64,000 bases of DNA from Candidatus Methanophagales archaeon (GTDB taxonomy: Archaea; Halobacteriota; Syntropharchaeia; Alkanophagales; Methanospirareceae). Position numbers and translations under genes: made by a program. The notes beneath the pieces were generated by a model. The model ran no database searches. It saw nothing but the letters and a program-made list of their open reading frames with translations, and was not told the origin of the DNA. How positions within the stretch are numbered: the stretch's first letter is position 1; each line of letters begins with the position of its first letter. Positions 9,662 through 37,500 of this stretch are shown here, piece after piece. The stretch covers positions 13,435 to 77,434 of the forward strand of contig JAPDIG010000001.1 of NCBI GenBank assembly GCA_025966525.1, in the 5' to 3' direction.

Positions 9662-11307
9662 TTTTAGGAATCCACGACGGACACAACGCAACTGCCGCGC
9701 TTCTTAAAGATGGTGAAATAATAGCAGCCATCTCAGAAGAACGTTTGACTCGCAGAAAGAACGAACCGGGCTATCCTGTAAGGGCAATCAATAAAGTCTT
9801 AGAAATAACAGGATCTACACCTGCGGATATAGACTATGTTGCTTTAGCATCTGAGTTCTTACATCCAAAGGAGTTTTACATGGATTGGAACTGGTATAAG
9901 CGCGGCTATGAAGAAGAGCTATATGAAAAAGCAGATACAGAAGTATTTGAGCAATACAAAAACAAACGATTGGAAGAACGAAAAGAGACGATAATAGACC
10001 ATCTTGGAGTAGCAAAAGATATAATCATAGTCGTTGAACACCACTTGGCACATGCTTCTGCTGCATACTTCGGGTATGGCAAAAAGGGATGTTTAGTATT
10101 AACCCTTGACGGTTCCGGTGACGGTATCTGTGCAACCGTGAACAGAGGCTTGAACCGAATAGCGGAAACGCCTAATAGCGCCTCGATTGGTAAAATTTAC
10201 TCGCGTGTGACTTATCTACTCGGCATGAAACCCTGGGAACACGAATACAAGCTGATGGGATTAGCGCCTTATGCGAGCGAAGATGGCGTTAAGAAGTCGT
10301 ATCAGGTGCTTAAAAAACTGATAAGGGTAGATAATGGCTCTTTAGTCTTCAGGAATAACGGGCTATCTACGAATTTTTGCTACCAGTATTTGCGGAAATA
10401 TCTAGAGAACCATCGTTTTGATCATATTGCTGGTGCTGTACAGAAGCTAACTGAGGATGTCGTCTTGAATTGGGTAAGAAATGCAATGAACCACACGAGT
10501 GAGCGAGAAATAGCATGCGGTGGCGGCGTATTTATGAATGTGAAACTCAATATGCTACTTTGCGATATCGTAGATAACCTTTTTATTTTTCCAAGTTGTG
10601 GCGACGAATCTTTAGCTATCGGCGCGGCTTATTATGTCTATTACAAACACGAGAACAGAATGCCAAAGCCTTTTAATAATATCTATCTAGGACCCGAGTA
10701 CACACAAGAAGAAGTTAGCTCCTTTTGTGAGCAACTCAAGGACTATAATGTCTATAAGAGTGCGAATATCAACAAAGAAATTGCGGATTTGCTTAGCGAC
10801 GGCGAGATAGTAGCAAGGTTCAATGGGCGAATGGAGTGGGGTGCGCGAGCTCTGGGGAACAGGAGCATACTTGCGAACCCCTCAGACCTGAACAAAGTTA
10901 AGGAATTGAACATCATGATCAAAGCGCGCGACTTCTGGATGCCTTTTGCACCCACAATATTGCACGAACGGCAGCATGACTATATACTTAACGAGAAAGA
11001 AATAGAATCACCGTACATGATGGTTGCATTTAGAACAACGAAGCGTGCGAGAAAAGAGCTGGCTGCCGCTGTTCATCCTTATGATTATACTGCACGACCT
11101 CAAATTTTGAAGAGAAAAAGCAACCCGGACTATTATGACTTAATAAAGGAATTCGAGAAGATTACCGGTATCGGTGCGGTGCTAAATACTTCATTTAACC
11201 TGCATGGCGAACCGATAGTGTGTAGCTTAGAGGACGCTTTTTATACTTTCATGCGTTCGGGCTTGCAGTTCTTAGCTGTTGGTGGTTATCTAATAGAAAA
11301 AAGATAA
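9655..11307 (+). CDS. Carbamoyltransferase (NodU/CmcH family)
   Basis: N-terminal MLILGIHDGHNATAALLKDGEIIAAISEERLTRRKN and EHHLAHASAAYFGYG are hallmark motifs of the family. Length 550 aa. Confidence 0.75.
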   Translation: MLILGIHDGHNATAALLKDGEIIAAISEERLTRRKNEPGYPVRAINKVLEITGSTPADIDYVALASEFLHPKEFYMDWNWYKRGYEEELYEKADTEVFEQYKNKRLEERKETIIDHLGVAKDIIIVVEHHLAHASAAYFGYGKKGCLVLTLDGSGDGICATVNRGLNRIAETPNSASIGKIYSRVTYLLGMKPWEHEYKLMGLAPYASEDGVKKSYQVLKKLIRVDNGSLVFRNNGLSTNFCYQYLRKYLENHRFDHIAGAVQKLTEDVVLNWVRNAMNHTSEREIACGGGVFMNVKLNMLLCDIVDNLFIFPSCGDESLAIGAAYYVYYKHENRMPKPFNNIYLGPEYTQEEVSSFCEQLKDYNVYKSANINKEIADLLSDGEIVARFNGRMEWGARALGNRSILANPSDLNKVKELNIMIKARDFWMPFAPTILHERQHDYILNEKEIESPYMMVAFRTTKRARKELAAAVHPYDYTARPQILKRKSNPDYYDLIKEFEKITGIGAVLNTSFNLHGEPIVCSLEDAFYTFMRSGLQFLAVGGYLIEKR

Positions 11308-11335: not shown

Positions 11336-11581
11336 TTATGGACGAGCCAGCTCACCAACGGCTTGGTAATGCAATTTCAGCACATTGTACTTCACTGCTT
11401 GCCTGTTGATTTGTACGCCATCGGGGTCGTATCTTCGTATCTTCACCTCGAGTAATCCGTCAGCACCTTGCAGGAACTGCGTCGTTGGTATCACAGCAAT
11501 GGGCGGGAAACCTGTCGGTAACGGTATTATGCTCGTGCTCGCAGCCCATGTCGTCTCTATTATGATGTCACACTGTTTCAT
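11336..11581 (-). CDS. hypothetical protein (paralogue of 11596..11907)
   Basis: C-terminal YQAVGELARP parallels YRAVGELVRT of the neighbouring gene. Confidence 0.35.
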   Translation of the reverse strand: MKQCDIIIETTWAASTSIIPLPTGFPPIAVIPTTQFLQGADGLLEVKIRRYDPDGVQINRQAVKYNVLKLHYQAVGELARP

Positions 11582-11595
11582 TTCTTATCCTCTTT

Positions 11596-11907
11596 TTATG
11601 TTCTGACTAACTCGCCAACCGCACGGTACTTAACGACCAACACTGCACCAGCTCCTATATCCTTATCAGCTTTTTTGAGGTTGAAACTACGAGCTGTGTA
11701 TGCCGATGGCACATCAGGGATATGTGGAGCAGCGCCTACTGTTGAAGCATACAGTATTGCCGGCCCCATGGATGCACTTGTCGTTGTAGGCATCCACGCT
11801 ATATCTGGATATCCAGCAGGTATCACAAACGGACCGCCAGTAGTCGGGGTTAATTTTGCAGTAGTTGCACCTACTTTCGTTGGTACCCGTATATATGCCT
11901 CTTTCAT
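11596..11907 (-). CDS. hypothetical protein (paralogue of 11336..11581)
   Basis: C-terminus shared with the downstream ORF. Gly/Ala/Thr/Pro-rich. Confidence 0.35.
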   Translation of the reverse strand: MKEAYIRVPTKVGATTAKLTPTTGGPFVIPAGYPDIAWMPTTTSASMGPAILYASTVGAAPHIPDVPSAYTARSFNLKKADKDIGAGAVLVVKYRAVGELVRT

Positions 11908-11927
11908 TTTTTATCTCACCTCCTCAC

Positions 11928-13046
11928 TCATGGCAAGTTCACTTTTATGCCCTGTAAGCACGCTATTATCCCCGCCGTCGGTATATTACCGTCATCAGCC
12001 GAGATTGCTGTCCCGTCATCGTATATAACCACTCTGCCCTTCTCGTTGTGTATCAGATACCCCATCGGTAGCAACGGCATTGGCACAAACAGCGGGAAGT
12101 TCTGCGGGAACAGTGGATAGCCGTGCCCGAAATGCAGTGGGTTGTTGTTGTAATCCACCCTGAACAGCTTCTCATCGCCCGCACTTCTCGGATACTCCCT
12201 GTCTCCTATCTTCAGTCCCATATACTTCAGGTGCGTATGCGACCTGACACCTATACCCTTTATGAACAGCGCTTCTGAAGTGCCATAGTCGAAATACAGG
12301 TTCTCCCAGTCGTTCGCTACATCGCCATCGCTATAATTGAAATCGAATGGTGTATTCGCCGTCGTTGCTACTTTGTTGTAAGCGTAGCGAATCATCGGCA
12401 TGATCTCAGGCTTTGACTGCTTCACACCGCCTACAAACATGTCCCAGTTCTTTATGCTCACATCTATCGCATCCTTTGTTACGCTCAGACTCTTACCCCT
12501 GTTGCGGTCCTCAATTGTCGCCTCTGCACCGTACACTGTATCGCCAAACACTGACCTCAGCATCGCCTCGCCCTTATACAAACGCCCCCACACACGTATC
12601 CGATAGTCTTCGGTAATGTCTGAGCTACCCGCAAAAGTCCGTATCGATATTGTCTTCTTCGCCTTCAATGTCGTGTTAAGGAACGGGTCCTCGATACCGG
12701 GCGTACCAAAGCTGAAGACTGCACGAGTCGTTTGCAATGGTGCAGGGCCACTCATCTGGCTTATCCGCGGTGGCGCCATGTTCGATGTGTATCGCCCGGA
12801 CAGGCTAACATACTCCTCGATCGCCGCGCCATCTATCACCGGTATCACCTGCTTGAGGTCTTCTCCCGGCCAGCCCGCATTCGGACTGAATATCTCTATA
12901 TACTCGATCTCTGCAACTTCATCGCTCTCAAGCCGCTTCGCTGTGAAGTCGTATCTATCGCCCGCAGACTGCGTCCCCGTATGCTCGAAATCCGCTAACA
13001 GCGTCGGCTGCAAAAGGTTCCCTACCGCTCCTATCTCTTCTGCCAT
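11928..13046 (-). CDS. hypothetical protein, possibly structural (capsid or envelope-like)
   Basis: 372-aa ORF with a strong AT-rich promoter-like region immediately upstream (13050-13150). No enzymatic motif. Confidence 0.4.
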   Translation of the reverse strand: MAEEIGAVGNLLQPTLLADFEHTGTQSAGDRYDFTAKRLESDEVAEIEYIEIFSPNAGWPGEDLKQVIPVIDGAAIEEYVSLSGRYTSNMAPPRISQMSGPAPLQTTRAVFSFGTPGIEDPFLNTTLKAKKTISIRTFAGSSDITEDYRIRVWGRLYKGEAMLRSVFGDTVYGAEATIEDRNRGKSLSVTKDAIDVSIKNWDMFVGGVKQSKPEIMPMIRYAYNKVATTANTPFDFNYSDGDVANDWENLYFDYGTSEALFIKGIGVRSHTHLKYMGLKIGDREYPRSAGDEKLFRVDYNNNPLHFGHGYPLFPQNFPLFVPMPLLPMGYLIHNEKGRVVIYDDGTAISADDGNIPTAGIIACLQGIKVNLP

Positions 13047-14780: not shown

Positions 14781-14915
14781 ATTCTCCAACACAACCATCC
14801 CCCACTGTACACAATCAAATGTGGAGATAAAACGAAGAAGCGGTATAGTATAAAGCTAGCAGTTGCAGATTACGAATTTGCTAAAAGTTTCGCAAGTGCA
14901 CTAAGGAAAATAGGT

Positions 14916-15365
14916 TTGCATCCCCATACATGGAAAGAGAAAAATGTAAGGAAGGGGAGAGAAAACGAACAAAAACTGTGGCATACCGAAGCGAATAGTA
15001 AAACTTTCGTCCGTTTTTTCTTATCGTTAAAAGATGACTGGAATGAGTTTGAAAAGTTCGTTAGAAGCTGTCCGAAAGGAAAAGAAATGTTCTTGCGAGG
15101 GTTCTATGAAAGTGAGGGACACCATGGAGTGTATGTTTATCGGAATAGTAAAGGAATTCGACGCGTTAGAGAGCTGCATTTCACTAATACTAACCCTCAC
15201 TTAGTTAAAATAACAATATCGTTTCTGCGCGAATTGGCATTCCATCCCTATACTTCTATCGAAAAGCGAAGACAGCTCGGCTGGAAAGATTGCATAACTA
15301 TCCGTCTCCCACCAAGAGAGCACAGGAGATTCCTCGCTCTTATATCACCAGTTATCAAAAAATAA
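14916..15365 (+). CDS. LAGLIDADG-like protein. The frame is open back to 14778, immediately after the MITE, so the 5' region may be disrupted
   Basis: FLRGFYESEGHH is paralogous to LRGFFEAEGSV in the 2879..3670 gene. The in-frame upstream extension RYSIKLAVADYEFAKSF abuts the MITE right end. Confidence 0.35.
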   Translation: MHPHTWKEKNVRKGRENEQKLWHTEANSKTFVRFFLSLKDDWNEFEKFVRSCPKGKEMFLRGFYESEGHHGVYVYRNSKGIRRVRELHFTNTNPHLVKITISFLRELAFHPYTSIEKRRQLGWKDCITIRLPPREHRRFLALISPVIKK

Positions 15366-16196
15366 AAGAAAAGAGGGAAAAAATCCGGTTTTTAAGCCCG
15401 CTCAAGCCGCACGCCGGCTATACGCTCCGCCACGCGTTGCTAATACGCGTATAGCGCACTCTCGTGCCGCTGTTAGCCTTCTCTCCCGCTCAGCGTCGTC
15501 ACATGCTACATATTTCTTACCAGGTGCGCCCGGCACGGGCATACCTATCGCAGCTTCCGACATACCTCGCGGGAGGCACTTGTCCGGCAGTGAGCAGTTC
15601 GCCCTCATGTTCGCCGCTGTCCACTTCGTCCTCGCTATGAGACCGGGACTGGACACGATGTTCTTCGCTCGCCTCGTGTACTTACCCATAGCGACACCGC
15701 CGCCAGGCTGTAGCATGCGGCTATTCACGACCGTCTTCTGTGTGAAGTCCGCCAGAGTCAAATATGTCATCTTTTGCCACTCACCTCCTTTTGTATTCTA
15801 TATTTCAATTATAAATCGCTATTATATAAAAATAACCACTCACAAGGTGTGGATTGATAATTAATAGGCTAATAGAAGGGATAGTGGCGATACTAAAAGT
15901 TTATATAACATATTACTACAACCTTTATATAAGAGGGTGTATAGAAAATGGAAGAAAAGAGTGAAAGGGCGACTTTGAGCTCGAGTGTGAAGAAACAGAA
16001 GGTGGAGCTGGACATACACGCGGTTGGGATATTGAACGAAGTGCGTGACAGGATAAAGAGCGAAGGCAAGAGCGGGATAACATATTCAGACGCGATAAGG
16101 TGGCTTGCGGTGAAAGCGGGCGTGCGTGAGGGCACGATGTAGCGGCGCCAAACAAGAAGGTTTTTATAACATAACCACCAATGTAGAATTAATTGG

Positions 16197-18506: not shown

Positions 18507-20160
18507 GTGAACTACCCACCTACAAGTAGGTGGGCTTCCATCTTCATCCAAGGTTCCAGCCCGGAATCATCGATGGTTCGGGCGAGTTCATCTATCGCCC
18601 CCGCCAGCTTCCGACTCCGCTTCAGAGCCGCTCTGGTCTTGTGCTTCAGATAGGTACTTGCCTTCTGAACCACTCTCACACAGGAGTTGAATTCCCGGTC
18701 GTATTGCATACCGCAGTTCGTGCACACCACGCGCCTGCCTTTCGCCTTTAATTTACCGCCACATTTGTGACATTCGCTTGAGGTGCCCCATTCGTTGAAC
18801 CGTATACCGATTATACCCCGCTCCTTTAACTTCTCTATTATGGTGTCCGCCAGCCTGCTGTAGCTCCAGTGCTGTAATATCTTCCTGCCTCGTTTATCGC
18901 CGTCGCCGCGATACTTGTGGTATCGTATCTGTTGCGGGTCGCCAATGACCACTATCTCATTCTCCGTCCCTGCGGCAAACTCTTTCGCGAGCTTACGGTC
19001 GTAATCTTCCGCCACATGCCTTCGCTTGTGCCTCAGCTTCTTCAATACGTTCCACTTCCTCAATCTTTGCAGGTGCGCTATGCGGTCATCCAACTCCCGG
19101 ATCCTCAACCACTTATCGTCGTATCGCAGCAGAGAGAAGTTTCGCGGGTGCTTCGGTAGCTTCACGGAAGCTATCGCACGTCTAACACCCAAGTCCACTC
19201 CTCTTACTGCGTGAACTGGTTGAGCGCGAACAAAATATTTACAGAGCAGATGCACGAAATACTTCTTACCGCGTTTGATTAGTTCAAACCCGCGCAGTTC
19301 CGCCGCACGCGCGAGCATTTCAAGATGCCATTTTGAGGGGTTGAGCAGTATTGTCAGCTTCTCACCCCTTTTTAAGGTTGAGATACGTATGACCAGTGGT
19401 GAGATTTTCAGATTTGATACCTCAATCGTGCCGGTTCGCGTGTCAAATCGCGTGGGTATCTTCTTCAAACTGCTCTTAGGTGATGTGCACGGCTCCGCCG
19501 GCTCACGCTTCAATAACTTCTTATACCACTTCGTGCCGGGTTTCGCGCGGCTCAGTTCACGCTCCCAGTCCTTATGCGCCTCACGATACTGCGCCCACAT
19601 CCATAGCGCCTTGTCTCGCGCCTGCTGTACGAACGCGGCACTCAACCCCGTGATGTGCTGTATCTCGCGCTCGTAAGGCGAGCAGTCCCGCTGAGTTTTC
19701 AGCCCCAGTTCGGATATGCGCTCGCACCACACCCGGACGGCGTAAGTCAGCCGCGCGGTGAGCCTGTCGAGATAGCTGAGCTTCTTGCCAGTGGTGGCGT
19801 AGTGCACCGGAATTTTGAGTGCGCGCAGGAGCTCGAAGAGTATCTTCTCCCCCGCTTCTTCCATCACCTGCACGGTTGGCTCGCCCACGACACCTGAGCA
19901 GCAATATTTTCCTCTCATGGCGACGTATATTTAATATATATTTTAGTATTTAAATATTTAATGTTGGGTATGGAGCACGAATTGACCTCTCATGGCGACT
20001 CCTCCATACCCAACCACGCTATTAAAGTATCATGCTCGATGACTGAGGCGCATTCATCACACCGTCAAGAGGTGTGTCTTCTGCGCTTTAAATCTATAAA
20101 TATTAAAATTGGTATGGCGGTTGCGAATTTAAGCATCTACACACACCCTGCCATACCATA
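18507..20160 (-). mobile_element. IS200/IS605-family insertion sequence, tnpB-only (IS1341-like); no tnpA present
   Basis: RE is ...gatggaagcccacctacttgtaggtgggtagttca at 18507-18540. LE has the hairpin cacaccgtcaagaggtgtg at about 20070-20100 and a long hairpin ggtatggc...gccatacc at 20111-20157. A single tnpB gene lies between them. Confidence 0.7.
18512..19918 (-). CDS. tnpB: TnpB (IS200/IS605 OrfB; RuvC-like RNA-guided nuclease family)
   Basis: RuvC-I-like GVDLGV, zinc finger CHKCGG...CTNCG, and a RuvC-III-like YDREFNS. Its 3' end lies inside the RE. Confidence 0.8.
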   Translation of the reverse strand: MRGKYCCSGVVGEPTVQVMEEAGEKILFELLRALKIPVHYATTGKKLSYLDRLTARLTYAVRVWCERISELGLKTQRDCSPYEREIQHITGLSAAFVQQARDKALWMWAQYREAHKDWERELSRAKPGTKWYKKLLKREPAEPCTSPKSSLKKIPTRFDTRTGTIEVSNLKISPLVIRISTLKRGEKLTILLNPSKWHLEMLARAAELRGFELIKRGKKYFVHLLCKYFVRAQPVHAVRGVDLGVRRAIASVKLPKHPRNFSLLRYDDKWLRIRELDDRIAHLQRLRKWNVLKKLRHKRRHVAEDYDRKLAKEFAAGTENEIVVIGDPQQIRYHKYRGDGDKRGRKILQHWSYSRLADTIIEKLKERGIIGIRFNEWGTSSECHKCGGKLKAKGRRVVCTNCGMQYDREFNSCVRVVQKASTYLKHKTRAALKRSRKLAGAIDELARTIDDSGLEPWMKMEAHLLVGG

Positions 20161-20196: not shown

Positions 20197-23100
20197 TCAG
20201 TCAAGAACCGTTATCGAAGCGCCTTTGGGTTCAGACTCGAATGTGACGGTTTTTGTTACTGCTCCTTTCTTCAGATACGCTTTTACTATGAAGTTACGGC
20301 AATATAACCCGTGTGCGGGCATTGAAGGTTCAGTGCCATAGCATGAAGCACCCGTTGATATGGCAGCCTCGCATGAGATACCCGAATCCGACACGGAGAT
20401 AACCATTTCTAATGTTTCATGCCCGCTAGCAACGGCTTTTATATAATGCCTGCCGTATGGGATGAGCTCGCCCGTCGCTATCTCCTTATATGTGGCGCCG
20501 GCAATATCATAAGGCTTGTAATAGAATGTTGCACTGATATAAGAACCGTCGGTGCCTGAATATGCCGATAAGTATATATATGCAGCCTTACACACTTTCA
20601 CAACCGTTGTTTCGTTTGCTTTCACATCCACAGAGAACGCACATGATGGTGAGAAGCAACGGTCAAGTATATCCACATAGCAATGATTGAATTCGCCTTC
20701 CTTACCTACTACCTCTACCGTATGTGGACCTGCGGGCACTGTCGCTGTTACTGCCGAGCCACCACCTTTATCAACACCGTCAATAAGGAAAGTTTCAACA
20801 TCACACGGCTTCTTAAACACGATTGACTCGAAAGTCATTATGGTTAGTTTGCCCTCAGGTGGCGGCGTTGTCACTACTTTAGCGGTGATTTTATGCGTTG
20901 CTGTCCCACAATTTGGCGGAGTTGCATTGTTACACGCTTCCAGGCGAATACCCCATACTCCAACCTTGTCAAAAGTATGAGTTATCGTCTTACCTGTCTT
21001 TTCGGTTTCAATACCGTCAGGGTCACTAATCGTCCATGTCCACGAAGTGACTTTATATGGGTCTTCGGTAGACGCCATGCCGATTAGGGTTGCCGACTCG
21101 CCGACGTTGACGGTGTTGGGAGCGATAATCCTTACATTTTTCACCGCTGGTGGCGCACCTGGACATACGGGGAAAGTATCTCTACCGGTATCCGAACCAG
21201 CATAATAAGCATAGATCATGTCAGCATCGTTACTTGTCACTTCACCATCGTCATCAACATCCGCCCGCTCCTTGAATTCCGACTCCGATAATCCTCCTAC
21301 TTTATCTTTAACGGCACCCCAGCCGAGTTCTACATAATCCATAACGAGTTTTGCATCCTCGTCTGTAACATAATTATCGGGGTCGTTGTTAACATTACCG
21401 TAGTTACCGCAGGGCGATTTTCTGTATTCGTACGCTTTTGAGACAGTAATTGTCCTGTGCACATCGATTGTTCCCGCACAGATTTTGAGATGTACCTCGT
21501 AACTGCCGGCTTCTGTGAATGTGTGTGTAACCACCCGTCCAGTCTTTTTGACATCGTGCGGGAACACCCATTCCCAATCAGTTATTTCTGAATCGTCACA
21601 GCCTTTTGCATGACCTTCAAAAGTCGCTTCTACACCTACTCGCACGCTTTCACGTGCTCCTGAATAATAATTGAACCATGCTCCCGTTGCCGGACATGGC
21701 TTTCTCCACTTGGGGTCCCATATCCTTGTCTTTTTAAGTCTTGCTGAGTTCTCAGCATTAACATATTCATCTTTTATCTTGTTATTGGTAGCATCCCAAA
21801 CATGTTTATTTTTATCATAGACGAATAGAACGGCATAACCTTCCTTCAGCTCTTCTATGCCAATATTTGTTGTACCTTTAAAAACAGCAGCTATCAAGCG
21901 AGGAGTTTTGTGTTTTAAGTCCCATTGTCTCTCGCTGTCGGACTTCAATGTAATATTTGTGCCGACAGGAAGCATATTAGCAAGCCATGCATTCGCTCGA
22001 GCATAAAACACGCTATCAACATACCAGAGTTCCTCGGATATACATTCCTCGCCGGGTGTTACTAACCGCCTGACAAGCCACGGCTCCTTCTTCTTCGTGC
22101 ATATATAAACATAGTCTGGTCCTTCTGGACTGTTTATACCTACAATGCGTACGCAATATGGCGTACCAGCATGCCGAATATGTATAGTATCGGCATCTTT
22201 GTGCTTAAGCACAGTTGCTGTTATCACTTCATTTAATTCTGGCACATAAACATCTGGTGGCCATCCTCCCGGCGGCTCTAGTGGTGCTATACAGCCTGCG
22301 CTTCGAACAGCAAAGGTATATTCATTACGATATACTGACCATGCTGTACGCACTTGATTACGCATGAATTCGTTTGGTTCACCTATCGAAACGCCATACA
22401 ATGTTGCATACAAGTTTATTGCCTCATTACGCTTGGTAGGATCAACAGCGTCAGCAATGTTCTTAAGTCTTTCTAACTCTTCAAGCATGGCTATATAATC
22501 ACGCTGAACTGTGGGGTCACAGGGGTTGTCTCGTATTTGGAATCCCAATGTCTTTAGCTTATCCTCTACAATCGCAAACTGCTCGCCAAAAGTTTTCTCG
22601 ATAACTCCTGCTTTACGCCCCACATAAACATTCATCACTAAATTGTCTAAAATATACCAAGTGCCACAGAACGCAGCAAAGCCTAATGCACCTGCAAGTA
22701 TTGGATGTTTCTTAATCTTAGCAAGGAGCCCTTTTTCTAGTTGCTTGCCAGTCTTTATTGCACCTGTAGCAAATCCTCTTGCTATGTCTATTTGAGCACT
22801 TAAAGCGGTCTTTGCTAGTTCATTCGCTATCTCCTCACTAGCTCCTGTGGCGATAGCGCGTTCGTATATATCGTCATACATAGCTTTTCCGTATAGCCAG
22901 AACAATCTATTCAATTCAGCAGTCTCTTCTATTGAGTCCAGTCCCAACGCATTGAAAACTTCTTCACCGCGTTTATCGCCAAGAACTTTTTTAAACTCCT
23001 CACGCAAGTTCTTGAACCAGTTCCTTCTTTCCGTTGCCTCCTCTGGAGTGAGTGGTTTAATATGCTTAGCAATTTCATCTGGATCATCAAAATGCTCAAA

Positions 23101-26100
23101 CTTTTTCATCAAAGCGTTAGAGTATCCCTTTTTAAAGAATTCGGGGTCTTTTAGTATCACATATCTAAATAATTCGCTTGGGTCCGCATATCTACCCTCT
23201 TTGTCTAGTTTCCTAGCAATCTTATCTATCGTGCCAGCATCTAACAGCTTTTTCAACTCATCAGTAGTTAACACATCAGAAATGTCTTTCGGTGCTTTAC
23301 GCCAAGGCATCCTGTTCTTTATACCTGCCCATATACTTCTCCAGAAGTCGTGTCCAAACCCAGAACCGGCAGCAGACTTGTTTGTTAGCTCTTTCCAAAA
23401 ACCTAGCAGGCTGTTTCTATGCTTTAAAAGTACTTCAAAAGTTTTTTTATCCGCAGGTAGTCCAGCTAGGTACTCAAAATACCCTAAAACTTCTTTATTC
23501 TTACCGGCAGCGAGTAGTTCGTTTATTTGCTTAACATCTTCAGGTTTCATGGCAGCTATTGCCATGAAAGTCTTTTTATATCCTTTTTTCGTTGTATCTA
23601 GCGTGAAACCCGCGTCGTATAACGCTTTTGTAAATTCAAACAAGTCTAATGTTTCACCATCTATTATTAGTTTTCCATCTTCTGCCAACCCTACTATCTG
23701 GTTTAGCTTGCACCAATGGCCTGGGCTACAAACGGCATCTGCCGCCTTTATGAACACTGTTATATTTTTTGTTCTATCACCATACCGCAATGTGTAGATA
23801 TACGCGGGATATGCCTCGTCTAATAGTCTTGCGTACGCATCAGGCCAATCGTGAAGCCTCTCTAAAGCATTACGATATGCTGAATACGCCCCTGTCCCCT
23901 CATACATAGCTTCGAGTCGTTCAAGATCAAAATACGCTAGTGCATCGTCGATCTCTTCTGCGAAATCTTCAACATTTCGTGCTGTTACCGTGCCTATATT
24001 CCATACATCATCAAGCATACCAGCGGCAACATCTAAATCACCATTTCTTAAATAAGATATATACTCGTCTTTCAAATCGTCAGATGCCACGCGCCAAAAA
24101 TACCAGAATTTTTCTTCACTGAACGCATCACGAACGATTTGCTTGATCTCCTCGTCAGCATAAGCGGCAATTTCACTAAACATCAGCCCAGTCTCCGAAA
24201 AGTCACCAACACGGTGTGCTCTATTAAAAGCCGTTATTATTAATCCATATTCGTCTACGGTAGGCTCAGCTATATTGCCAGCTATATCCTTACCATATTT
24301 AACCTTTTGGTATGCATCGAAAAAAGTACCATACGCTTCTGCTCTCTTCGCAAGCTCGAATGCGCCATCCCAATTGTTATACAACACATTTGCTAATCTT
24401 TTTGCGTTTCCATACCGTATATCGGCATAACCAATTTCAGCAAGCACTGACCTTGCAGTATCCTTTATGGCTTTTTCCAGATCAGCAATCTCTTTCGCCT
24501 GCTTAGGATCAATATTCTTAATCTGCTTCTCAAGCTCATCCAGCCACCGATTGAACTTATTTATCGCTTCCCAATCTTCAATTGCAGGATTTCTAAGGAT
24601 GGCTTCTCCCAATTCTTTAGCTCTTTCTATGTCACCATCAGCAATCGCTTTCGCCCATAAATCCAATTTCGCTTCGTCGCCATACACCAGTATTCTATAA
24701 GCCTCTGTTGGATTTGCCTCTATGAATTCTCTAACCGCAGCAACATCATCACCGTGCTTAACGCCCTTCCTTATGATTTTGCCCAGATATTTCGTTATCT
24801 TACCGCCCGGTACCATCGGTAATACTGAACACACCACAACTATCGGGAACATAGCGAGCTCGAACGCATCGGGATGGTACTCTGCACCGTATATGTCCTT
24901 ACCCCTGATAACCCCAGAAATCACATCTGCACAATATATCGGGTCCAGCATCTCTGCCCAGAATCGGCGGCACTCGTCTGAATCCTTTGGTATGCCCATG
25001 AGCTCACAAGCTTCACCAAAGACTCCATAACGAGAGTAAAGATATATGTCTTTCGTACCCTCAAACTTGCCGCACCAGACAGGACCGGTAGGTAAAAATC
25101 CTTTTGCTATATTCGGTCCTATACCATAGGTTTCTCCTTCTACTAGCCCATCATCTTTTGTAAATACTACCTCACCATCCGGGTATTTATCCGGCTTTTT
25201 TTCGTGTATATCCGTCCCCGGCGCTGGTATAAAACATCGTGACCACGCATATGCACGCCTGCATAGCACTGTATCCCCTTCTTTAAACCCTTTCGTGTGT
25301 ACAATAAACTTATCCTCCTCCGTGATTGGTCTAAGCGTGAACTCGAACTCATAAGTGCCTTCTCCTTCGCCATTCCCGCCCTGACGCCGCGTTGTCTTGA
25401 CTTCTGTCCAATCCTCATGCATATCACTATTCAAATACCCCGGCTTGCCCGCTATGAATCCGTATCTACAAGCCGCTCCGGGCAGTGATGGCAACCCTAT
25501 GCTAAGGACGCCTTCATCATCGGTCTTGAGAAGGTTACCATAGCCTTTCCAGCTCTCGGTAGTGCATACCCCTTTATGTACCGTTATGTCAGAGCAGGGT
25601 ACTTCCTGCCATGTGCCTTCAAAAATCTCTTTCGTAACGCTTACATACGCATGTTCTATACCATTCCCTTCCTCGTCCTTTACTGTTGTCCTTATTTCGT
25701 ATGGCGATTGCGCTTGCGTTTCAAAATCAAACTCATCATCAGACGGGCAGCCCTGTATAATCTGTCCGTCTTTGATATGGAAGCTATAATCTTTACCATA
25801 ATCCATATCAACATTGCAATCCAAAAGGAACTGTTCGGATTCATCTGTACCCAATGTTATAGAACTAGTTTCGATACCTATTGTATTCTCGGTACTGCAG
25901 CCTTTACCCTCGCGCAGCCACAGACAGCGCTTATCCGAAGCACCACCCATGTTCTTTATTATTATCTTGAACAGTGGGCGTTTGCAATCGCCTAAGTCTA
26001 TTGTACCACCTTCCGTAACGCCCCAAAAGGTTATACCATTGTCCGTGCTATAATACACTTCTTTAATCTCAAGCTTGGGTGGGGGTGTTGTCACAGTTAT

Positions 26101-27111
26101 CGTAAAAGTGCATTCAGACTCTTTATAATCAGCATCACCCTTAAACTTCGCCTTAATCGTTGCCGTCTCCTCTACACTGCATGTATATGTGATAGAACAC
26201 TTACCTTCGGGATTCGTAGCACACGAACCTATGCTGACTTCTGTGCTATCCACTAACTTATAGAACTCTATCCACCTGCCATCAAGCGGTCTTTTCGGTG
26301 ATATTGCATCTGTCAAAAGCACTTCTAAATCTACCGTATCGCCAACAGTGGCAGTCTTATGTGGATCTATGCATGTCAGTTCTGTATACGCCTTTGGTAG
26401 CTGAACCCTAAGATGAATAGCATCCGTCGTGTCGTGAGTATAACATGTCCCACCCTCGTATGAACCACAATGTAATACTGCATCTTTGTCTGATGAGGGC
26501 ATACTGAAAGTGCAATCCGGCATACGCACCCACGATTTACCTGCATCTATATCTTTCGTCTTCGGACCACAACGATAATAGTTGCCCCATACAACACCGT
26601 AGCAGGCTGTGCCTGATACATTATTTGTGTTCCTCACCCACGCTCTTGCGGTCAGCGTAGCACCAGCTGGCGCTCTAAGTGTAGAGCCAGGCTTATACAC
26701 ATGGCCGTTGTACCATATATACGCATAATTAAATTTGTATTCTGGTAGTGGCTTACCTATTTCGATAGTCCACGAATATTTCGTTTCCTTGAGCTCGCCT
26801 TGTCTATCAGGATCACCTAACCACAGCTCCACTTTTGCCGTGCCTGATTTGCTCGGTGTGCATCCGATTGCTGGTAATTTCTTTGTCTGGTCTTTGCACG
26901 GTACTGTATCGAACCGTCTGCAAACTTCTGTCGAGTCTATCAGTAGCCGGACTGTTACACTTATTTGGCTAACCTTTGTGTATGTGCACCGGACTTTTGC
27001 ATGTAGCCAAAAAGTTTCGCCAGCGGTAACTGTGATCGTACTTCCTAAGTTATATCGCTTGCCCCCGTAATAGATATATGGGTCCTCATCGAATTTTACC
27101 GTTCCAGGCAT
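20197..27111 (-). CDS. Giant (2304 aa) multi-domain cell-surface protein with Ig-like/PKD domains, a dockerin-type Ca-binding repeat and an embedded staphylococcal-nuclease-like (SNase) domain
   Basis: SNase motifs HKDADTIHIRHAGTPYCVRIVGINSPE and DLKHKTPRLIAAVFKGTTNIGIEELKEGYAVLF. PKD-like WEWVFPHD...THTFTEAGSYEVHLKI. Dockerin-like DVDDDGEVTSNDADMIYAYYAG. Two hydrophobic segments, and a long Lys/Glu/Ala-rich helical middle region. Confidence 0.65.
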   Translation of the reverse strand: MPGTVKFDEDPYIYYGGKRYNLGSTITVTAGETFWLHAKVRCTYTKVSQISVTVRLLIDSTEVCRRFDTVPCKDQTKKLPAIGCTPSKSGTAKVELWLGDPDRQGELKETKYSWTIEIGKPLPEYKFNYAYIWYNGHVYKPGSTLRAPAGATLTARAWVRNTNNVSGTACYGVVWGNYYRCGPKTKDIDAGKSWVRMPDCTFSMPSSDKDAVLHCGSYEGGTCYTHDTTDAIHLRVQLPKAYTELTCIDPHKTATVGDTVDLEVLLTDAISPKRPLDGRWIEFYKLVDSTEVSIGSCATNPEGKCSITYTCSVEETATIKAKFKGDADYKESECTFTITVTTPPPKLEIKEVYYSTDNGITFWGVTEGGTIDLGDCKRPLFKIIIKNMGGASDKRCLWLREGKGCSTENTIGIETSSITLGTDESEQFLLDCNVDMDYGKDYSFHIKDGQIIQGCPSDDEFDFETQAQSPYEIRTTVKDEEGNGIEHAYVSVTKEIFEGTWQEVPCSDITVHKGVCTTESWKGYGNLLKTDDEGVLSIGLPSLPGAACRYGFIAGKPGYLNSDMHEDWTEVKTTRRQGGNGEGEGTYEFEFTLRPITEEDKFIVHTKGFKEGDTVLCRRAYAWSRCFIPAPGTDIHEKKPDKYPDGEVVFTKDDGLVEGETYGIGPNIAKGFLPTGPVWCGKFEGTKDIYLYSRYGVFGEACELMGIPKDSDECRRFWAEMLDPIYCADVISGVIRGKDIYGAEYHPDAFELAMFPIVVVCSVLPMVPGGKITKYLGKIIRKGVKHGDDVAAVREFIEANPTEAYRILVYGDEAKLDLWAKAIADGDIERAKELGEAILRNPAIEDWEAINKFNRWLDELEKQIKNIDPKQAKEIADLEKAIKDTARSVLAEIGYADIRYGNAKRLANVLYNNWDGAFELAKRAEAYGTFFDAYQKVKYGKDIAGNIAEPTVDEYGLIITAFNRAHRVGDFSETGLMFSEIAAYADEEIKQIVRDAFSEEKFWYFWRVASDDLKDEYISYLRNGDLDVAAGMLDDVWNIGTVTARNVEDFAEEIDDALAYFDLERLEAMYEGTGAYSAYRNALERLHDWPDAYARLLDEAYPAYIYTLRYGDRTKNITVFIKAADAVCSPGHWCKLNQIVGLAEDGKLIIDGETLDLFEFTKALYDAGFTLDTTKKGYKKTFMAIAAMKPEDVKQINELLAAGKNKEVLGYFEYLAGLPADKKTFEVLLKHRNSLLGFWKELTNKSAAGSGFGHDFWRSIWAGIKNRMPWRKAPKDISDVLTTDELKKLLDAGTIDKIARKLDKEGRYADPSELFRYVILKDPEFFKKGYSNALMKKFEHFDDPDEIAKHIKPLTPEEATERRNWFKNLREEFKKVLGDKRGEEVFNALGLDSIEETAELNRLFWLYGKAMYDDIYERAIATGASEEIANELAKTALSAQIDIARGFATGAIKTGKQLEKGLLAKIKKHPILAGALGFAAFCGTWYILDNLVMNVYVGRKAGVIEKTFGEQFAIVEDKLKTLGFQIRDNPCDPTVQRDYIAMLEELERLKNIADAVDPTKRNEAINLYATLYGVSIGEPNEFMRNQVRTAWSVYRNEYTFAVRSAGCIAPLEPPGGWPPDVYVPELNEVITATVLKHKDADTIHIRHAGTPYCVRIVGINSPEGPDYVYICTKKKEPWLVRRLVTPGEECISEELWYVDSVFYARANAWLANMLPVGTNITLKSDSERQWDLKHKTPRLIAAVFKGTTNIGIEELKEGYAVLFVYDKNKHVWDATNNKIKDEYVNAENSARLKKTRIWDPKWRKPCPATGAWFNYYSGARESVRVGVEATFEGHAKGCDDSEITDWEWVFPHDVKKTGRVVTHTFTEAGSYEVHLKICAGTIDVHRTITVSKAYEYRKSPCGNYGNVNNDPDNYVTDEDAKLVMDYVELGWGAVKDKVGGLSESEFKERADVDDDGEVTSNDADMIYAYYAGSDTGRDTFPVCPGAPPAVKNVRIIAPNTVNVGESATLIGMASTEDPYKVTSWTWTISDPDGIETEKTGKTITHTFDKVGVWGIRLEACNNATPPNCGTATHKITAKVVTTPPPEGKLTIMTFESIVFKKPCDVETFLIDGVDKGGGSAVTATVPAGPHTVEVVGKEGEFNHCYVDILDRCFSPSCAFSVDVKANETTVVKVCKAAYIYLSAYSGTDGSYISATFYYKPYDIAGATYKEIATGELIPYGRHYIKAVASGHETLEMVISVSDSGISCEAAISTGASCYGTEPSMPAHGLYCRNFIVKAYLKKGAVTKTVTFESEPKGASITVLD

Positions 27112-27114
27112 CTC

Positions 27115-28050
27115 TCACCATCCATGAAGTTTTGGCGTGTTCTCAAATTTATATTCACCTTCCCTCATTATAAAGAATTCAGTCTCATCAATCTTATCCT
27201 TCAGTGGCTCAAGCTTCTTCCGTAGCCAGTAATACCGCTTCTCCGCATTCCTTAACTTGCTTTTCCATTCCCACGGCCACTCCTTTTCTATTAATCCTAT
27301 CACATGGTTCCACACCTCTGAATTGAAGACATTGAGATAAATGCCCTCCATCCTTGAATCGACATACCCGCGTGTGCTCTCAGCTGGCCATCCCTGCTTG
27401 AAATAGTGCCCCACAACCGCGTCTTTATCAATCAGGCAGGGATGTCCCAAACGCCACAGCCGTATCCCATATTCCTCCTCCCAACCCAGTCCACGATGAG
27501 TCCACAAAAAACCACCATAACTGTCCAAGTGTTTAAAAGTCGCTGGAGTCATTGCGAATGCGCACCCGCAGGTTGTGGGCACGGGAAAGATAGTTTCGTC
27601 TTTCGGTGAGGGCAGCCATACCCACTCGAACGGGTGTTTAACGAACTTGAACGCTACTCCGTGCCCAAAACCGCCACTCGGCTCGCACGAAGGGAATTGC
27701 ACCACCTGTATAGCGGGTCCCACTGCCGCTTCGGGATGGCTCCACAGCGTGTCCATCCATCTCTCTATCGCTTCTGGTGTGAAACATGTATGACAGTCGA
27801 GAAAAATCAATGCTTTCGAGTAATGTGCCGCGTTACGCGCTCCCACATTACGCGCTTGACCGCAGCTTTCTATGCTGCCTATCACTTTCACCGGGAAGTT
27901 CGCCAGTTCCCTAACCCACATCATGTCAACTCCCGGCTCACCAACGACAAATATGAGCTCTTTTTCAGCTGGCACTTGTGAAATCTGCTGCAACATCTTC
28001 TCGATAAACTCCCTATCCTCTTTGTATTCTTGCACAATGAAGGAGATCAT
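27115..28050 (-). CDS. GT2-family (GT-A fold) glycosyltransferase
   Basis: N-terminal Rossmann-like ELIFVVGEPG and the DxD-like FLDCH. The gene ends 3 bp before the giant gene, in an operon-like arrangement. Confidence 0.55.
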   Translation of the reverse strand: MISFIVQEYKEDREFIEKMLQQISQVPAEKELIFVVGEPGVDMMWVRELANFPVKVIGSIESCGQARNVGARNAAHYSKALIFLDCHTCFTPEAIERWMDTLWSHPEAAVGPAIQVVQFPSCEPSGGFGHGVAFKFVKHPFEWVWLPSPKDETIFPVPTTCGCAFAMTPATFKHLDSYGGFLWTHRGLGWEEEYGIRLWRLGHPCLIDKDAVVGHYFKQGWPAESTRGYVDSRMEGIYLNVFNSEVWNHVIGLIEKEWPWEWKSKLRNAEKRYYWLRKKLEPLKDKIDETEFFIMREGEYKFENTPKLHGW

Positions 28051-29560: not shown

Positions 29561-29974
29561 CTACGCTTCAATCCCCACTTCTGCAAGTTTTACTTTCACG
29601 CTCTCTATCCTTATCCTCCTACCCTCCTCCGTCACCGGCGTGAATCTGCCTTCATCATCAAGTATCTTCGCCTGCACGGGCTGGTAAATCTGTCCAAACA
29701 TCAGTAACTGGTAGCGTCTGCCGGCAGGCACAACAACCCTAAACTCACCGTTCATGTCCGTGCTCGTCTCCGCTACCACATTATTGCCCGCCTCATCCAT
29801 TATCTTTATCGGCGCCGCAAAAATCGGCTCGCCAGTCTCAGAATCTATTGCTATTCCTTCTATTACCGCCTTCTTCTCTTCCCCCATTTTTCCTACAATA
29901 AGCATTATGTAAAAAATAAAATAAAAACTTTTCTCGTCAATACCGTTTCCACTTAGTTTTATACTTGCGCGCAT
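29561..29974 (-). CDS. Carboxypeptidase-regulatory-domain-like / Ig-like beta-sandwich protein
   Basis: GIAIDSETGEPIFAAPIKIMDEAGNNVVAETSTDMNGEFRVVVPAG matches the CarboxypepD_reg-like pattern. Confidence 0.4.
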   Translation of the reverse strand: MRASIKLSGNGIDEKSFYFIFYIMLIVGKMGEEKKAVIEGIAIDSETGEPIFAAPIKIMDEAGNNVVAETSTDMNGEFRVVVPAGRRYQLLMFGQIYQPVQAKILDDEGRFTPVTEEGRRIRIESVKVKLAEVGIEA

Positions 29975-30245
29975 CCAAGCGTACCATTAAAAGCCACTCC
30001 ACTTTTTTCACCTTGTGTTTTTCACGCCACTCTCTCAGTTTTTTCAAGAATCCCCGTGTGCTATTCGTTTTCACTTGCACAAAATCTATCTCACTACCGT
30101 CCGGCGAAATCGCAAGAAAATCGAACATATTAAAAATATCTTGTGTGCCGTATTTCGACACTTTCTGTGGCTTGTATACTAACCAGCCCCGGTGCTCATA
30201 TTCCTGCACTGCTTCTCGTTCGTGCAGGCTACCTTTCCTGCTCAT
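29937..30245 (-). CDS. Holliday-junction-resolvase (Hjc)-like PD-(D/E)xK nuclease
   Basis: KGSLHEREAVQEYEHRGW...DFLAIS...IDFVQVKT follows the Hjc arrangement of G-S-x-x-E-R-E, D and E-V-K motifs. Confidence 0.45.
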   Translation of the reverse strand: MSRKGSLHEREAVQEYEHRGWLVYKPQKVSKYGTQDIFNMFDFLAISPDGSEIDFVQVKTNSTRGFLKKLREWREKHKVKKVEWLLMVRLDARKYKTKWKRY

Positions 30246-36129: not shown

Positions 36130-37500
36130 GAACTACCCATCAATGAATTGATGGGCATCTGATTCATGAAGGGACGACATCCTTCGCCCTCCATGTCAGC
36201 GGTGCGTCCACAACACCAATACTCCTCGAGATATTCCTCTCTTGGAGATACTTCTTCAGTATGTTCAGCGCCGCATTCACATCCGCATTCAGCTCCGCTC
36301 CACAGCTTTTGCATACATACAGACCTCTATACTTGCGGTTCGCTCTCCTCACGGCGCCGCAAACCGAACAGGTCTTACTCGTGTCTCGCTCACTGACTTT
36401 TTCAAATCGTATGCCAGATAGTTTCGCTTTGTATTCTATCTGCGTCAGGAGCTTAGCAAAAGCCCACGCGTGGAGCTTCTGGTTGCCTCGCCTCCCACAG
36501 TTCTTACCTCGCCTTATGTTCTTCACATCACCACATACTATTGTCCCCACATTATTCCTCTTTGCTTCTTCTACCACTTCCTTTGATACCATGTGGATAA
36601 TCTGGTTAATTTGTCTTCTTTTTCTTTTATGCATGTTCGTAATTGCTTTGCTTCCTCTTTTATTATATTGCTTCATCGTTTTTGATTGCACCTTCGCTAT
36701 CTCTTTATTGAAATAATGCTGAACCGCGAGAGCCAACCTGCCGGAATATATGGTTGAATTCCCTTTTGTATCCACTGTAACGGCAAGATTTATTATCCCT
36801 ATATCCACAGCCATTATCTCAGGACTATCTTTCAGCGGCACTTCCGGTATCTCATACACCACATGTGCCATCCATTTCCCACTCTCATAAAGGATATTGC
36901 ACATCTTCGGGATACCTTCTATCTCACGCCAGTTATTGATCTTCAGATGGAGTTTATCCACCCCCTCTTCCGCTCTGAATTTCCTCGACATTACGAGCGT
37001 GATTGTATCTCCCTCTATTGAGAACTGTTGATAAAATGTGAGAGGACTTAGCTTATTCTTCTTTCGGAAACCGGGTGGTTTCGCATTCGGGTCTTCTTTC
37101 CGCAAGTGGAACCATGAATTATAATTATCTTGCAAGTTCTTGATAATCGCCTGCGCCGTCTGAGAAGGTAAGAGTTTATACCAGTGGTTGTCCTTCAGTT
37201 TCTTCTTTTGCTCGTACCAGTCGGGTATTTTACCGGTCTGTGCCCATATCTCTCGCCTTTGCCAGTTATCGGTATTATACAATTTCGTCGCATAATAACC
37301 AAGCTTCCTCAGTAACTTCTCTTGCTCATCTGTTACTTCAATCCGATACTTTACTGTTAGTTTCATCTCTGCGCCACACTATTTATTTATATGTTTTTAT
37401 TATATAAAAAGTTTTAAGGTATAGGTGGGGAGAGATTTAATCATCTCTGCGCCACCCCCACCTATACCCGCACCCCGCCCTAAAGGGCGGTGGGGATGTC
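36130..37500 (-). mobile_element. Second IS200/IS605-family tnpB-only element (diverged from the first)
   Basis: RE gtgaactacccatcaatgaattgatgggcatc at 36126-36160 has the same tgaactaccca-plus-palindrome organisation. LE-side hairpins ggtataggtgggg...ccccacctatacc and ccgccctaaagggcgg lie at 37420-37500. Confidence 0.55.
36164..37366 (-). CDS. tnpB: TnpB (IS200/IS605 OrfB family)
   Basis: VDIGIINLAV (RuvC-I), zinc finger CSVCG...CKSCG, and DVNAALNI (RuvC-III). Confidence 0.75.
   Translation of the reverse strand: MKLTVKYRIEVTDEQEKLLRKLGYYATKLYNTDNWQRREIWAQTGKIPDWYEQKKKLKDNHWYKLLPSQTAQAIIKNLQDNYNSWFHLRKEDPNAKPPGFRKKNKLSPLTFYQQFSIEGDTITLVMSRKFRAEEGVDKLHLKINNWREIEGIPKMCNILYESGKWMAHVVYEIPEVPLKDSPEIMAVDIGIINLAVTVDTKGNSTIYSGRLALAVQHYFNKEIAKVQSKTMKQYNKRGSKAITNMHKRKRRQINQIIHMVSKEVVEEAKRNNVGTIVCGDVKNIRRGKNCGRRGNQKLHAWAFAKLLTQIEYKAKLSGIRFEKVSERDTSKTCSVCGAVRRANRKYRGLYVCKSCGAELNADVNAALNILKKYLQERNISRSIGVVDAPLTWRAKDVVPS

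Follow-up and report, generated by a model that had tools for sequence, protein, structure and literature searches.

A giant mosaic protein with a staphylococcal-type nuclease domain and a dockerin-type module on a virus-like mobile element of ANME-1 archaea

A stretch of 64,000 nucleotides from a Candidatus Methanophagales archaeon (assembly GCA_025966525.1, contig JAPDIG010000001.1, positions 13,435 to 77,434), which belongs to the anaerobic methanotrophic archaea of group 1 (ANME-1), contains a single open reading frame (ORF) for a giant protein of 2304 amino acids (aa); the whole stretch is called the window here, and coordinates refer to it unless another locus is named. Along the protein, Ig-like domains are followed by a hydrophobic segment, a region rich in Lys, Glu and Ala, a second hydrophobic segment, a nuclease domain of the staphylococcal nuclease (SNase) type, a dockerin-type module between two PKD domains and, at the C-terminus, beta domains (Table 1), which is the order proposed in an initial annotation of the sequence. 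The product is identical to the NCBI entry 'MAG: PKD domain-containing protein [Methanophagales archaeon]', found on a contig of 82,114 bp, and full-length relatives of 2073-2621 aa (designated by L or P numbers where they need to be told apart) are encoded on independent contigs; the uninterrupted frame is therefore neither a frameshift artefact nor an assembly fusion or a chance ORF.

The two PKD domains lie above the Pfam gathering cut-off (PKD_4 at E 1.7e-16 and PKD at E 3.1e-15, on two stretches each; PF00801 and PF18911, 60.5 and 56.4 bits). Three further assignments fall just under their curated cut-offs and were for this reason examined by additional means: SNase with 19.9 bits (cut-off 21), Dockerin_1 with 20.4 bits (cut-off 22.9) and, in the neighbouring gene, glycosyltransferase family 2 (GT2; PF00535) with 19.6 bits (cut-off 23.3).

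As to the nuclease, the relatives P0013, P0014 and P0019 exceed the Pfam SNase (PF00565) cut-off with 27.5, 28.6 and 26.7 bits, respectively, and the domain of the window protein matches the NCBIfam model of the Ca-activated nuclease EcnA from end to end (E 4.6e-7, profile positions 3-149 of 151), at 29.9 bits against an equivalog cut-off of 180. AlphaFold2 (AF2), given a 12-sequence alignment of the family, modelled the domain with a predicted local distance difference test score (pLDDT) of 89.8, while a two-sequence alignment had yielded only 38; the top 50 matches of the model in a Foldseek search of the PDB are all staphylococcal nuclease (best E 1.2e-8, probability 1.00, target-normalised template-modelling score 0.79-0.87). 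The predicted fold is an OB-fold (oligonucleotide/oligosaccharide-binding) beta-barrel with three helices, superposable on staphylococcal nuclease. When the nuclease region was compared with PDB sequences only, marginal SNase matches (E 0.5-1.5) were obtained together with armadillo-repeat matches, the latter spurious and due to one short stretch, and a word-indexed search with the two-sequence alignment returned no homologue.

The motifs DADT (aa 1639-1642) and VRIVGINSPE (aa 1654-1663) are located in this domain, and D1639, D1641, T1642, R1655, N1660, E1663 and R1738 align to D19, D21, T22, R35, D40, E43 and R87 of the Staphylococcus aureus enzyme, in which Arg35, Glu43 and Arg87 have well established catalytic roles. 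Across 12 to 16 members of the family aligned with S. aureus nuclease, R35 and R87 are invariant, D21 is nearly so, and the E43 position is occupied by Glu or Asp; the DGDT motif (D19, D21, T22), both Arg and the acidic residue at E43 are conserved in members only 22-40% identical. The initial annotation had spoken of Ca-site motifs, and these are indeed present, including the Asp21 equivalent D1641, but the textbook Ca ligand Asp40 is replaced by Asn1660; most members have Asn at this position, two have Gln and at least five retain the canonical Asp (P0013, P0017, P0020, P0022 and L021). Ser stands at the Thr41 position, E1663 is followed by an insertion of about 45 aa that is specific to the family and includes an invariant Arg, and the domain is basic (pI 8.8). 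The modelled fold, the family-wide Arg/Glu/Arg and the EcnA match all confirm a genuine SNase domain, with the equivalents of the catalytic residues (R1655, E1663 and R1738) aligned as a structural check of the earlier assignment called for, and nuclease activity may be expected from them.

The sequence DVDDDGEVTSNDADM (aa 1951-1965), flanked by the PKD domains and previously taken for a dockerin-type repeat, belongs to a module with two Ca loops of 12 residues each, NVNNDPDNYVTD at aa 1906-1917 and DVDDDGEVTSND at aa 1951-1962. Each loop is followed by a short helix-type stretch (NVNNDPDNYVTD-EDAKLVMDYV and DVDDDGEVTSND-ADMIYAYYAG), and the segments are conserved in five relatives; at position 6 of the first loop, where Gly would be usual, there is Pro, possibly owing to a one-residue insertion as compared with canonical dockerins. 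Dockerin_1 (PF00404) is below its cut-off also in P0014 (21.8 bits). A profile of the family module searched against the PDB placed cellulosomal dockerins on top (4fl4_A with E 8.6e-5, then 1daq, 2mte, 1ohz_B and 4uyp_B), and nearly all of the best matches were dockerins, ranked before EF-hand proteins, with the calcium-sensor construct 4i2y_A tying at E 0.031. The conserved loops and this ranking speak for a dockerin-type module despite the sub-threshold Pfam score, and its partner would be a cohesin. Many cohesin and dockerin proteins, some of them scaffoldin-like, are encoded in ANME-1 genomes (PMC9012536); among the window ORFs scanned, no cohesin gene was found. Regions homologous to the two C-terminal beta domains score as PEGA in relatives.

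The N-terminal part of the protein has a Big_1/Big_3_5 match at aa 251-341, below the Pfam threshold; in relatives, where the N-terminal modules are shuffled, Big_1, Big_3_5, CarboxypepD_reg and BACON matches occur in this part. A hydropathy scan of the whole protein detected two strongly hydrophobic segments only (aa 747-773 and 1470-1489). The region between them is rich in Ala, Leu, Lys and Glu, with Pro and Gly scarce, varies in length from about 220 to 930 aa across the family, and has no match in Pfam, PHROG or NCBIfam. The flanks of helix 1 carry a charge of 0 on the N-terminal and +4 on the central side, those of helix 2 +4 on the central and +1 on the C-terminal side; by the positive-inside rule, the +4 charges on the central side of both helices would place the helical region inside and the two beta-rich ends outside. 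Cys residues are distributed in the same manner, with 28 in the N-terminal 745 aa, two in the central region and 20 in the C-terminal 815 aa (50 of 52 outside the central region). The juxtamembrane segment behind helix 2 (TM2post) is present in 15 of the compared family members and immediately precedes the SNase region in most.

The N-terminus, MPGTVKFDEDPYIYYGGKRY / MPGTVKFDEDPY, contains no signal peptide, and no hydrophobic stretch precedes aa 747; likewise, none of about 25 family members (relatives with intact N-termini) has a signal peptide, a lipobox or a twin-arginine motif as judged by hydropathy and by eye. The 745-aa N-terminal part would thus be without an ordinary export route, and the designation as a surface protein in the initial annotation could not be upheld as established, either for the giant protein or for any relative.

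The combination of domains had been regarded as unusual, which the size of the family bears out: an exhaustive HMMER search with aa 741-1640 retrieved 22 representatives among 1.84 billion, all of them large proteins. Judged by its relatives, the protein falls into a small family without a name, whose members are giant mosaic proteins on virus-like elements of ANME-1. Mosaicism was mapped by placing 15 segments of the window protein onto all relatives, which revealed an invariant core consisting of modules C and D and helix 1, of the first part of the helical region, of helix 2 plus about 145 aa of juxtamembrane segment, and of SNase. Both ends are variable, with exchangeable Ig-like, carboxypeptidase-regulatory-like, PKD and PEGA-like modules, and with the dockerin in the window lineage. 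L001 is the closest element; its flanking genes share 93-98% identity with those of the window, and its giant protein is nearly the same in N2 (97%), D (92%) and PKD-dockerin-PKD (96-99%), but only 64% identical in the early helical part, unmatched in the later helical region and the TM2 segment, and 28% identical in SNase; from this divergence between near-identical flanks, the helical-TM2-nuclease unit has been swapped as one cassette. A third type of cassette (L014, P0004, P0005) again has two hydrophobic segments, and in the full-length L014 protein the nuclease domain is kept, now behind a PKD domain. Since the nuclease is retained in all three types of central cassette, even when relocated, it is evidently the feature maintained by selection. 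In the distant relative L005 (8620..15325) the giant gene seems to be split into overlapping ORFs of 468 and 1862 aa, by a frameshift or a sequencing error.

Table 1. Features of the giant gene and of the genes next to it.
Feature	Extent	Position in window	Strand	Basis or remarks
Giant ORF	2304 aa plus stop	20197..27111	(-)	ATG at 27111, stop at 20197; uninterrupted
Beta-sandwich array (N1, N2, Ig-like, B, C, D)	aa 1-745	24877..27111	(-)	Pfam and relatives; no signal peptide; 28 Cys
Hydrophobic helix 1	aa 747-773	24793..24873	(-)	ELAMFPIVVVCSVLPMVPGG; Kyte-Doolittle peak 2.16
Ala/Lys/Glu-rich, presumably helical region	aa 774-1469 (696 aa)	22705..24792	(-)	Composition; 2 Cys
Hydrophobic helix 2	aa 1470-1489	22645..22704	(-)	PILAGALGFAAFCGTWYILD; hydropathy scan
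Juxtamembrane region (TM2post segment)	aa 1490-1624	22240..22644	(-)	Travels with nuclease domain
SNase domain	aa 1625-1812	21676..22239	(-)	Pfam, NCBIfam, AF2, Foldseek, alignments
PKD domain 1	aa 1813-1895	21427..21675	(-)	Pfam
Dockerin-type module	aa 1896-1985	21157..21426	(-)	Two F-hand Ca loops
PKD domain 2	aa 1986-2085	20857..21156	(-)	Pfam
Two C-terminal beta domains (Ct1, Ct2)	aa 2086-2304	20200..20856	(-)	Homology; end ...TFESEPKGASITVLD
GT-A (GT2-like) glycosyltransferase	311 aa	27115..28050	(-)	3 bp upstream of giant gene; invariant D85-x-H87
SAM-dependent methyltransferase	274 aa	28069..28893	(-)	Pfam CMAS, Methyltransf_25, DOT1
His/Cys protein	215 aa	28905..29552	(-)	Alignment; invariant GHG (His63) and IAC-x-SG (Cys96)
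Small CarboxypepD_reg-like protein	about 108-137 aa	29561..29974	(-)	Pfam E 8.1e-6, below cut-off
Conserved companion genes, opposite flank of the giant gene: PEGA-like, PEGA-like, two further ORFs	124, 409, 114 and 102 aa	16197..18463	(+)	

Directly upstream of the giant gene, the glycosyltransferase ORF ends in TGA, which is followed by 'gag' and the ATG of the giant gene, so that the 3-bp gap reported before is real; the genes farther upstream are separated by gaps of 18, 11 and 8 bp, and this tight packing would be compatible with a single transcription unit from about 30245 to 20197. An L005 protein for which a PF00535 match is on record shares 30% identity (E 1.7e-35) with the glycosyltransferase, and because D85-x-H87 is invariant in four glycosyltransferase sequences the latter is probably an active enzyme. 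In a comparison of 13 loci, its adjacency to the giant gene was limited to the window, L001 and, with three copies, L005; beside the giant genes of L002, L003, L004, L010-L015, L021 and L022 it is absent. The neighbourhood from which glycosylation of the giant protein had been deduced thus exists but is not conserved, and it says little about such a modification.

What is variable is the slot between the giant gene and the gene for the 215-aa His/Cys protein: in most loci it holds an S-adenosylmethionine (SAM)-dependent methyltransferase, in the window and L001 alone, a methyltransferase plus the GT-A enzyme, in L005 three GT2 genes, in L021 and L022 a radical-SAM/SPASM enzyme, and in L003 and L004 nothing recognisable, which suggests a set of interchangeable modifying enzymes. 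The methyltransferase, located upstream of the giant gene in most relatives, matches mad2 in PADLOC (E 2.7e-13) and could equally act on DNA. The 215-aa protein, in turn, is the only neighbour upstream of the giant gene in every context (the window, L001-L005, L010-L015, L021 and L022), although the initial annotation does not mention it. It has 32 homologues, one of which is named 'CHAT domain-containing protein' in UniRef, and no match in Pfam, NCBIfam, PHROG, PADLOC or PDB sequences; a protease of clan CD (caspase/CHAT-like) is a lead here, not a finding. The CarboxypepD_reg-like gene is conserved just upstream of it. A 102-aa ORF at 29937..30245, taken by eye for an Hjc-type resolvase, was dropped without Pfam or NCBIfam support.

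On the other side, the same set of companion genes adjoins the giant gene in L001, L004, L005, L006, L010 and L014; the 409-aa PEGA-like protein has a Pro/Thr linker and a C-terminal hydrophobic anchor and lacks a signal peptide. A TnpB-like ORF of 468 aa with a Cas12f1-like TNB domain (18512..19918, minus strand) directly follows the stop of the giant gene. It has no equivalent at the corresponding site of L001, L006 and L014 and is therefore a recent insertion of an insertion sequence.

To judge by its gene content, the DNA around the giant gene is a virus-like mobile element of ANME-1 of roughly 80 kb and not host chromosome. The window contains genes for a PrimPol-D5 helicase, three TnpB, two LAGLIDADG endonucleases and Ro60, as well as a sugar-modification block, and is free of tRNA and housekeeping genes; a pectinesterase-like protein matches phage tail-fibre families of PHROG, with further phage-family matches present (the giant protein itself has none in PHROG). 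In relatives, HNH endonucleases and a protein resembling phiC31 Gp3 are encoded in addition; the samples were taken at Pescadero Basin and comparable sites. The 215-aa partner has homologues on contigs that measure 80.4, 82.1 and 84.1 kb, which suggests an element genome of about 80 kb. Among the window ORFs scanned, no recognisable capsid of the types known from ANME-1 viruses (HK97, double or single jelly-roll, spindle, rod) was found. A class of 'unclassified MGEs' (mobile genetic elements) is kept for ANME-1 by Laso-Perez et al. 2023 (PMC9894754); PKD, SNase and dockerin proteins are not mentioned in the supplement of the ANME-1 virome paper and in the 2026 hotspot paper.

Some other features of the element were recorded. 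A 372-aa ORF followed by small paralogues (103 and 81 aa, both ending AVGEL-x-R; 11336..13046, minus strand) forms a set conserved in L001 and L005; its members look beta-rich by eye, have no significant match (for the 372-aa ORF, a distal tail protein at E 0.5) and are candidates for capsid-type proteins. A small two-helix ORF (6000..6362), considered as a spindle-virus capsid candidate, looks like a spurious antisense ORF and was discarded. Two more TnpB genes lie at 36164..37366 and 48832..49962; between the latter and the PrimPol-helicase gene, an RNA of the HgcC family (50037..50139, plus strand; 60.9 bits, cut-off 50) is the only Rfam match of the window. At 39297..42560, a Ro60/TROVE and vWA protein (minus strand) faces a 357-aa protein (plus strand) of PHROG 1362, a family common in mycobacteriophages; for the 475-bp gap between the two, the Rfam gathering scan reported no Y-RNA-like gene, the gap itself not having been examined. 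Between the window and L001, the sugar-modification block (6356..11307, plus strand) shows 97-98% identity; it comprises a 520-aa methyltransferase, a GT1-like protein, a carbamoyltransferase and a UDP-glucose/GDP-mannose dehydrogenase. Free-standing genes of LAGLIDADG homing endonucleases are found at 2879..3670 and 61937..62920 (both minus strand) and in L001 at 14794..15786, where the window has only a 149-aa ORF (14916..15365); their presence thus varies among near-identical elements. A protein of 620-670 aa with a SWIM zinc finger and a domain like phiC31 Gp3, that is, like a recombination directionality factor (E 2.8e-39), is encoded in L004 (2870..4735), L005 (1..610) and L021 (5167..7083), with no counterpart found in the window.

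The explanation that we place first, tentatively and aware that it may well prove wrong, is that the giant protein is the element's own attachment protein, part of its particle: a membrane-held adhesin-nuclease that docks onto cohesins of the host and cuts extracellular DNA. It would be synthesised in the cytoplasm, lacking a signal peptide, and be anchored by its two helices in a lipid layer, the helical region facing inwards. Binding to the ANME-1 envelope would fall to the beta-sandwich modules and the dockerin, the hosts encoding many cohesin proteins, and the Ca-type nuclease, located on their side of the layer, would cut extracellular DNA either in the surroundings of the cell or where attachment takes place. 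This explanation is ranked first because signal peptides are lacking, the swapping of modules is of a host-range kind, and large viral proteins with SNase-like domains exist: near-identical elements that exchange whole modules (flanks 93-98%, SNase 28%) do so as host-range proteins might, and SNase-like domains occur among the viral structure predictions in BFVD in proteins of about 1,000-1,340 aa, some of which have a caudoviral annotation. Several observations weigh against it, above all the missing particle genes and the textbook positive-inside hairpin. Searches of the 64-kb window with Pfam, PHROG and PDB sequences identified no capsid, portal, terminase or packaging-ATPase gene, and its sole Walker A motif is that of the PrimPol helicase. 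IMG/VR holds no relatives of the giant protein, the 215-aa protein, the PrimPol helicase or the phrog_1362 protein, and GenBank phage records have no match to the giant protein, to 25 kb of the DNA or to ORFs of 513 and 714 aa. The two-helix hairpin, with a topology deduced from a hydropathy window and charge counts alone, looks like that of a cell-membrane protein inserted co-translationally; binding of a cohesin is predicted from the dockerin assignment, and with Asn at the Asp40 position (Gln or Asp in relatives) the activity of the nuclease is unproven. Extended to the family, the proposal is rather unlikely in its complete form, namely that these proteins would be the attachment and entry device of unclassified ANME-1 viruses of about 80 kb, with a cohesin-dockerin pair as the receptor system, a particle nuclease that cuts through the DNA-containing matrix of the consortia, a host range set by cassette swaps, and a CHAT-like protease and modifying enzymes that mature the protein.

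It is possible, if doubtful, that the protein instead converts the surface of the infected or lysogenic cell, which is the view of the initial annotation transferred to a mobile element, being located in the host membrane with both ends outside and its dockerin engaged in the cohesin network of the host; the nuclease might then destroy incoming or ambient DNA and so exclude competitors, or free phosphate and nucleotides for replication of the element, a role that we regard as doubtful to the same degree. The helices, which obey the positive-inside rule with the termini outside, would fit such a protein, as would domain types typical of extracellular proteins and the lack of particle genes in the window. 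Surface-bound thermonucleases using extracellular DNA are known, including the archaeal Hvo_1477 (PMC3929857), and the element combines sugar-modifying genes with glycosyltransferases, as Borgs do alongside PEGA proteins (PMC9605863). However, an N-terminal tail of at least 745 residues, folded into beta domains, would need to be moved across the membrane with no signal peptide, the C-terminally anchored PEGA-like neighbour has none either, and the wholesale swapping of modules would suit a host-range protein better than a housekeeping nuclease. A different fate is conceivable but improbable: as a polyprotein or ejection protein the product would be cut, for example by the 215-aa His/Cys protein, into an N-terminal fibre, a tape-measure-like or membrane-inserting middle and a C-terminal nuclease-adhesin, and, which is improbable as well, insertion of the hydrophobic segments into the host membrane would not take place before infection. 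Long helices, hydrophobic segments and a C-terminal enzyme do occur together in tape-measure proteins, T5 Pb2 being an example; the hydrophobic segments of the giant protein are positioned exactly at the borders of the three parts, its middle varies about four-fold in length like a ruler and is exchanged with the nuclease as a single cassette, and of the upstream neighbours only the 215-aa protein, in which His63 and Cys96 are invariant, is conserved throughout. Yet no tape-measure family of PHROG or Pfam matches, two thirds of the protein are beta-sandwich domains and not mostly helical, and the adjoining genes are for a methyltransferase, a glycosyltransferase and the His/Cys protein, with no tail-chaperone or tail-tube gene among them; no cleavage sites are known, and the grounds for a protease are two motif residues and the name used in one database, neither profiles nor PDB sequences having matched.

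The nuclease itself might also be a non-enzymatic OB fold of the Tudor-SN type that binds nucleic acids or ligands, the whole being an adhesin or scaffold, which we consider quite improbable. The loss of the Asp40 ligand to Asn or Gln in most members, the window score under the Pfam cut-off and the 45-aa insertion next to the active site would agree with it, but R35, E43 (as Glu or Asp), R87 and DGDT are retained among members only 22-40% identical, P0013, P0017, P0020, P0022 and L021 have the canonical Asp, and the side-chain oxygen of Asn or Gln can still ligate Ca. Extremely improbable, finally, is an anti-virus defence module made up of a membrane nuclease effector, a CHAT-like protease and a methyltransferase: the similarities in its favour, of the methyltransferase to mad2 of MADS (E 2.7e-13) and of the SNase motif to 'SNc+LTD' of PADLOC (E 0.005), are both of a generic kind at the level of the fold, no PADLOC model is matched by the 215-aa protein, by the glycosyltransferase or by the remainder of the giant protein, and arrays of adhesion modules and a dockerin are not features of known defence effectors.

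Surface-bound thermonucleases are known from S. aureus (Nuc), B. subtilis (the lipoproteins YokF and YncB) and Haloferax volcanii (Hvo_1477) (PMC3929857). The giant protein would share with them a Ca-type nuclease of the SNase fold at a membrane or surface, with catalytic Arg/Glu/Arg, its own location and substrate being predicted; they are proteins of 150-330 aa that have no more than two domains and carry either a signal peptide or a lipobox, whereas the giant protein has 2304 aa, two internal helices, about twelve additional modules, Asn in place of Asp40 and the 45-aa insertion, lacks a signal peptide and is encoded by an element. In B. subtilis YhcR, too, a nuclease is tethered to the cell surface as part of a large protein with many domains; unlike the giant protein it has a signal peptide, is chromosomally encoded and lacks a two-helix hairpin, a long helical region and a dockerin. 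YhcR is a wall-anchored, sugar-non-specific nuclease and sortase substrate (PMC3929857, Table 2). With the dockerin proteins of cellulosomes and of ANME archaea there is the duplicated F-hand Ca-binding module in common, which gave the best PDB sequence matches, and ANME-1 hosts encode cohesin scaffolds (PMC9012536); here, however, the module lies between two PKD domains inside a giant protein on a mobile element. Tape-measure and ejection proteins such as T5 Pb2 resemble it in a long, variable helical stretch with hydrophobic segments and an enzymatic domain behind, but not in the 745 aa of beta-sandwich in front and 500 aa behind, and there is neither a profile match nor a tail-gene neighbourhood. 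In BFVD, for example, A0A6J5NQ80 (1342 aa, from an uncultured Caudovirales phage) also has an SNase-like OB fold within a viral protein of more than 1,000 aa (E 2.6e-6, 15% identity, the nuclease domain only having been compared); such viral proteins are uncharacterised. Borg elements of Methanoperedens are likewise extrachromosomal, reside in a methane-oxidising archaeal host and carry PEGA-type proteins and glycosyltransferases, but the host lineage is another, the ANME-1 element is far smaller, the likeness is one of gene content, and the available part of their description reports no tethered nuclease (PMC9605863). Each of these systems shares one aspect with the giant protein, and none shares the full architecture.

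Much of the methane that rises from marine sediments is consumed by ANME-1 archaea. Pure cultures of them cannot be obtained, and to our knowledge almost nothing is known about how viruses or mobile elements reach them. Described here are a very small, unnamed family in an important uncultured lineage, and a clear case of cassette swapping in an archaeal element. The family also offers experimental handles, as the nuclease domain could be assayed alone and the dockerin screened against ANME-1 cohesins, and the dockerin link would give the puzzling abundance of cohesin-dockerin pairs in ANME-1 a possible role at the virus-host interface. If, on the other hand, the protein is displayed on the infected cell, a mobile element would provide its host with a surface that degrades extracellular DNA, which would have a bearing on how phosphorus is scavenged, how biofilms are structured and how genes flow in the sediments of seeps and vents.

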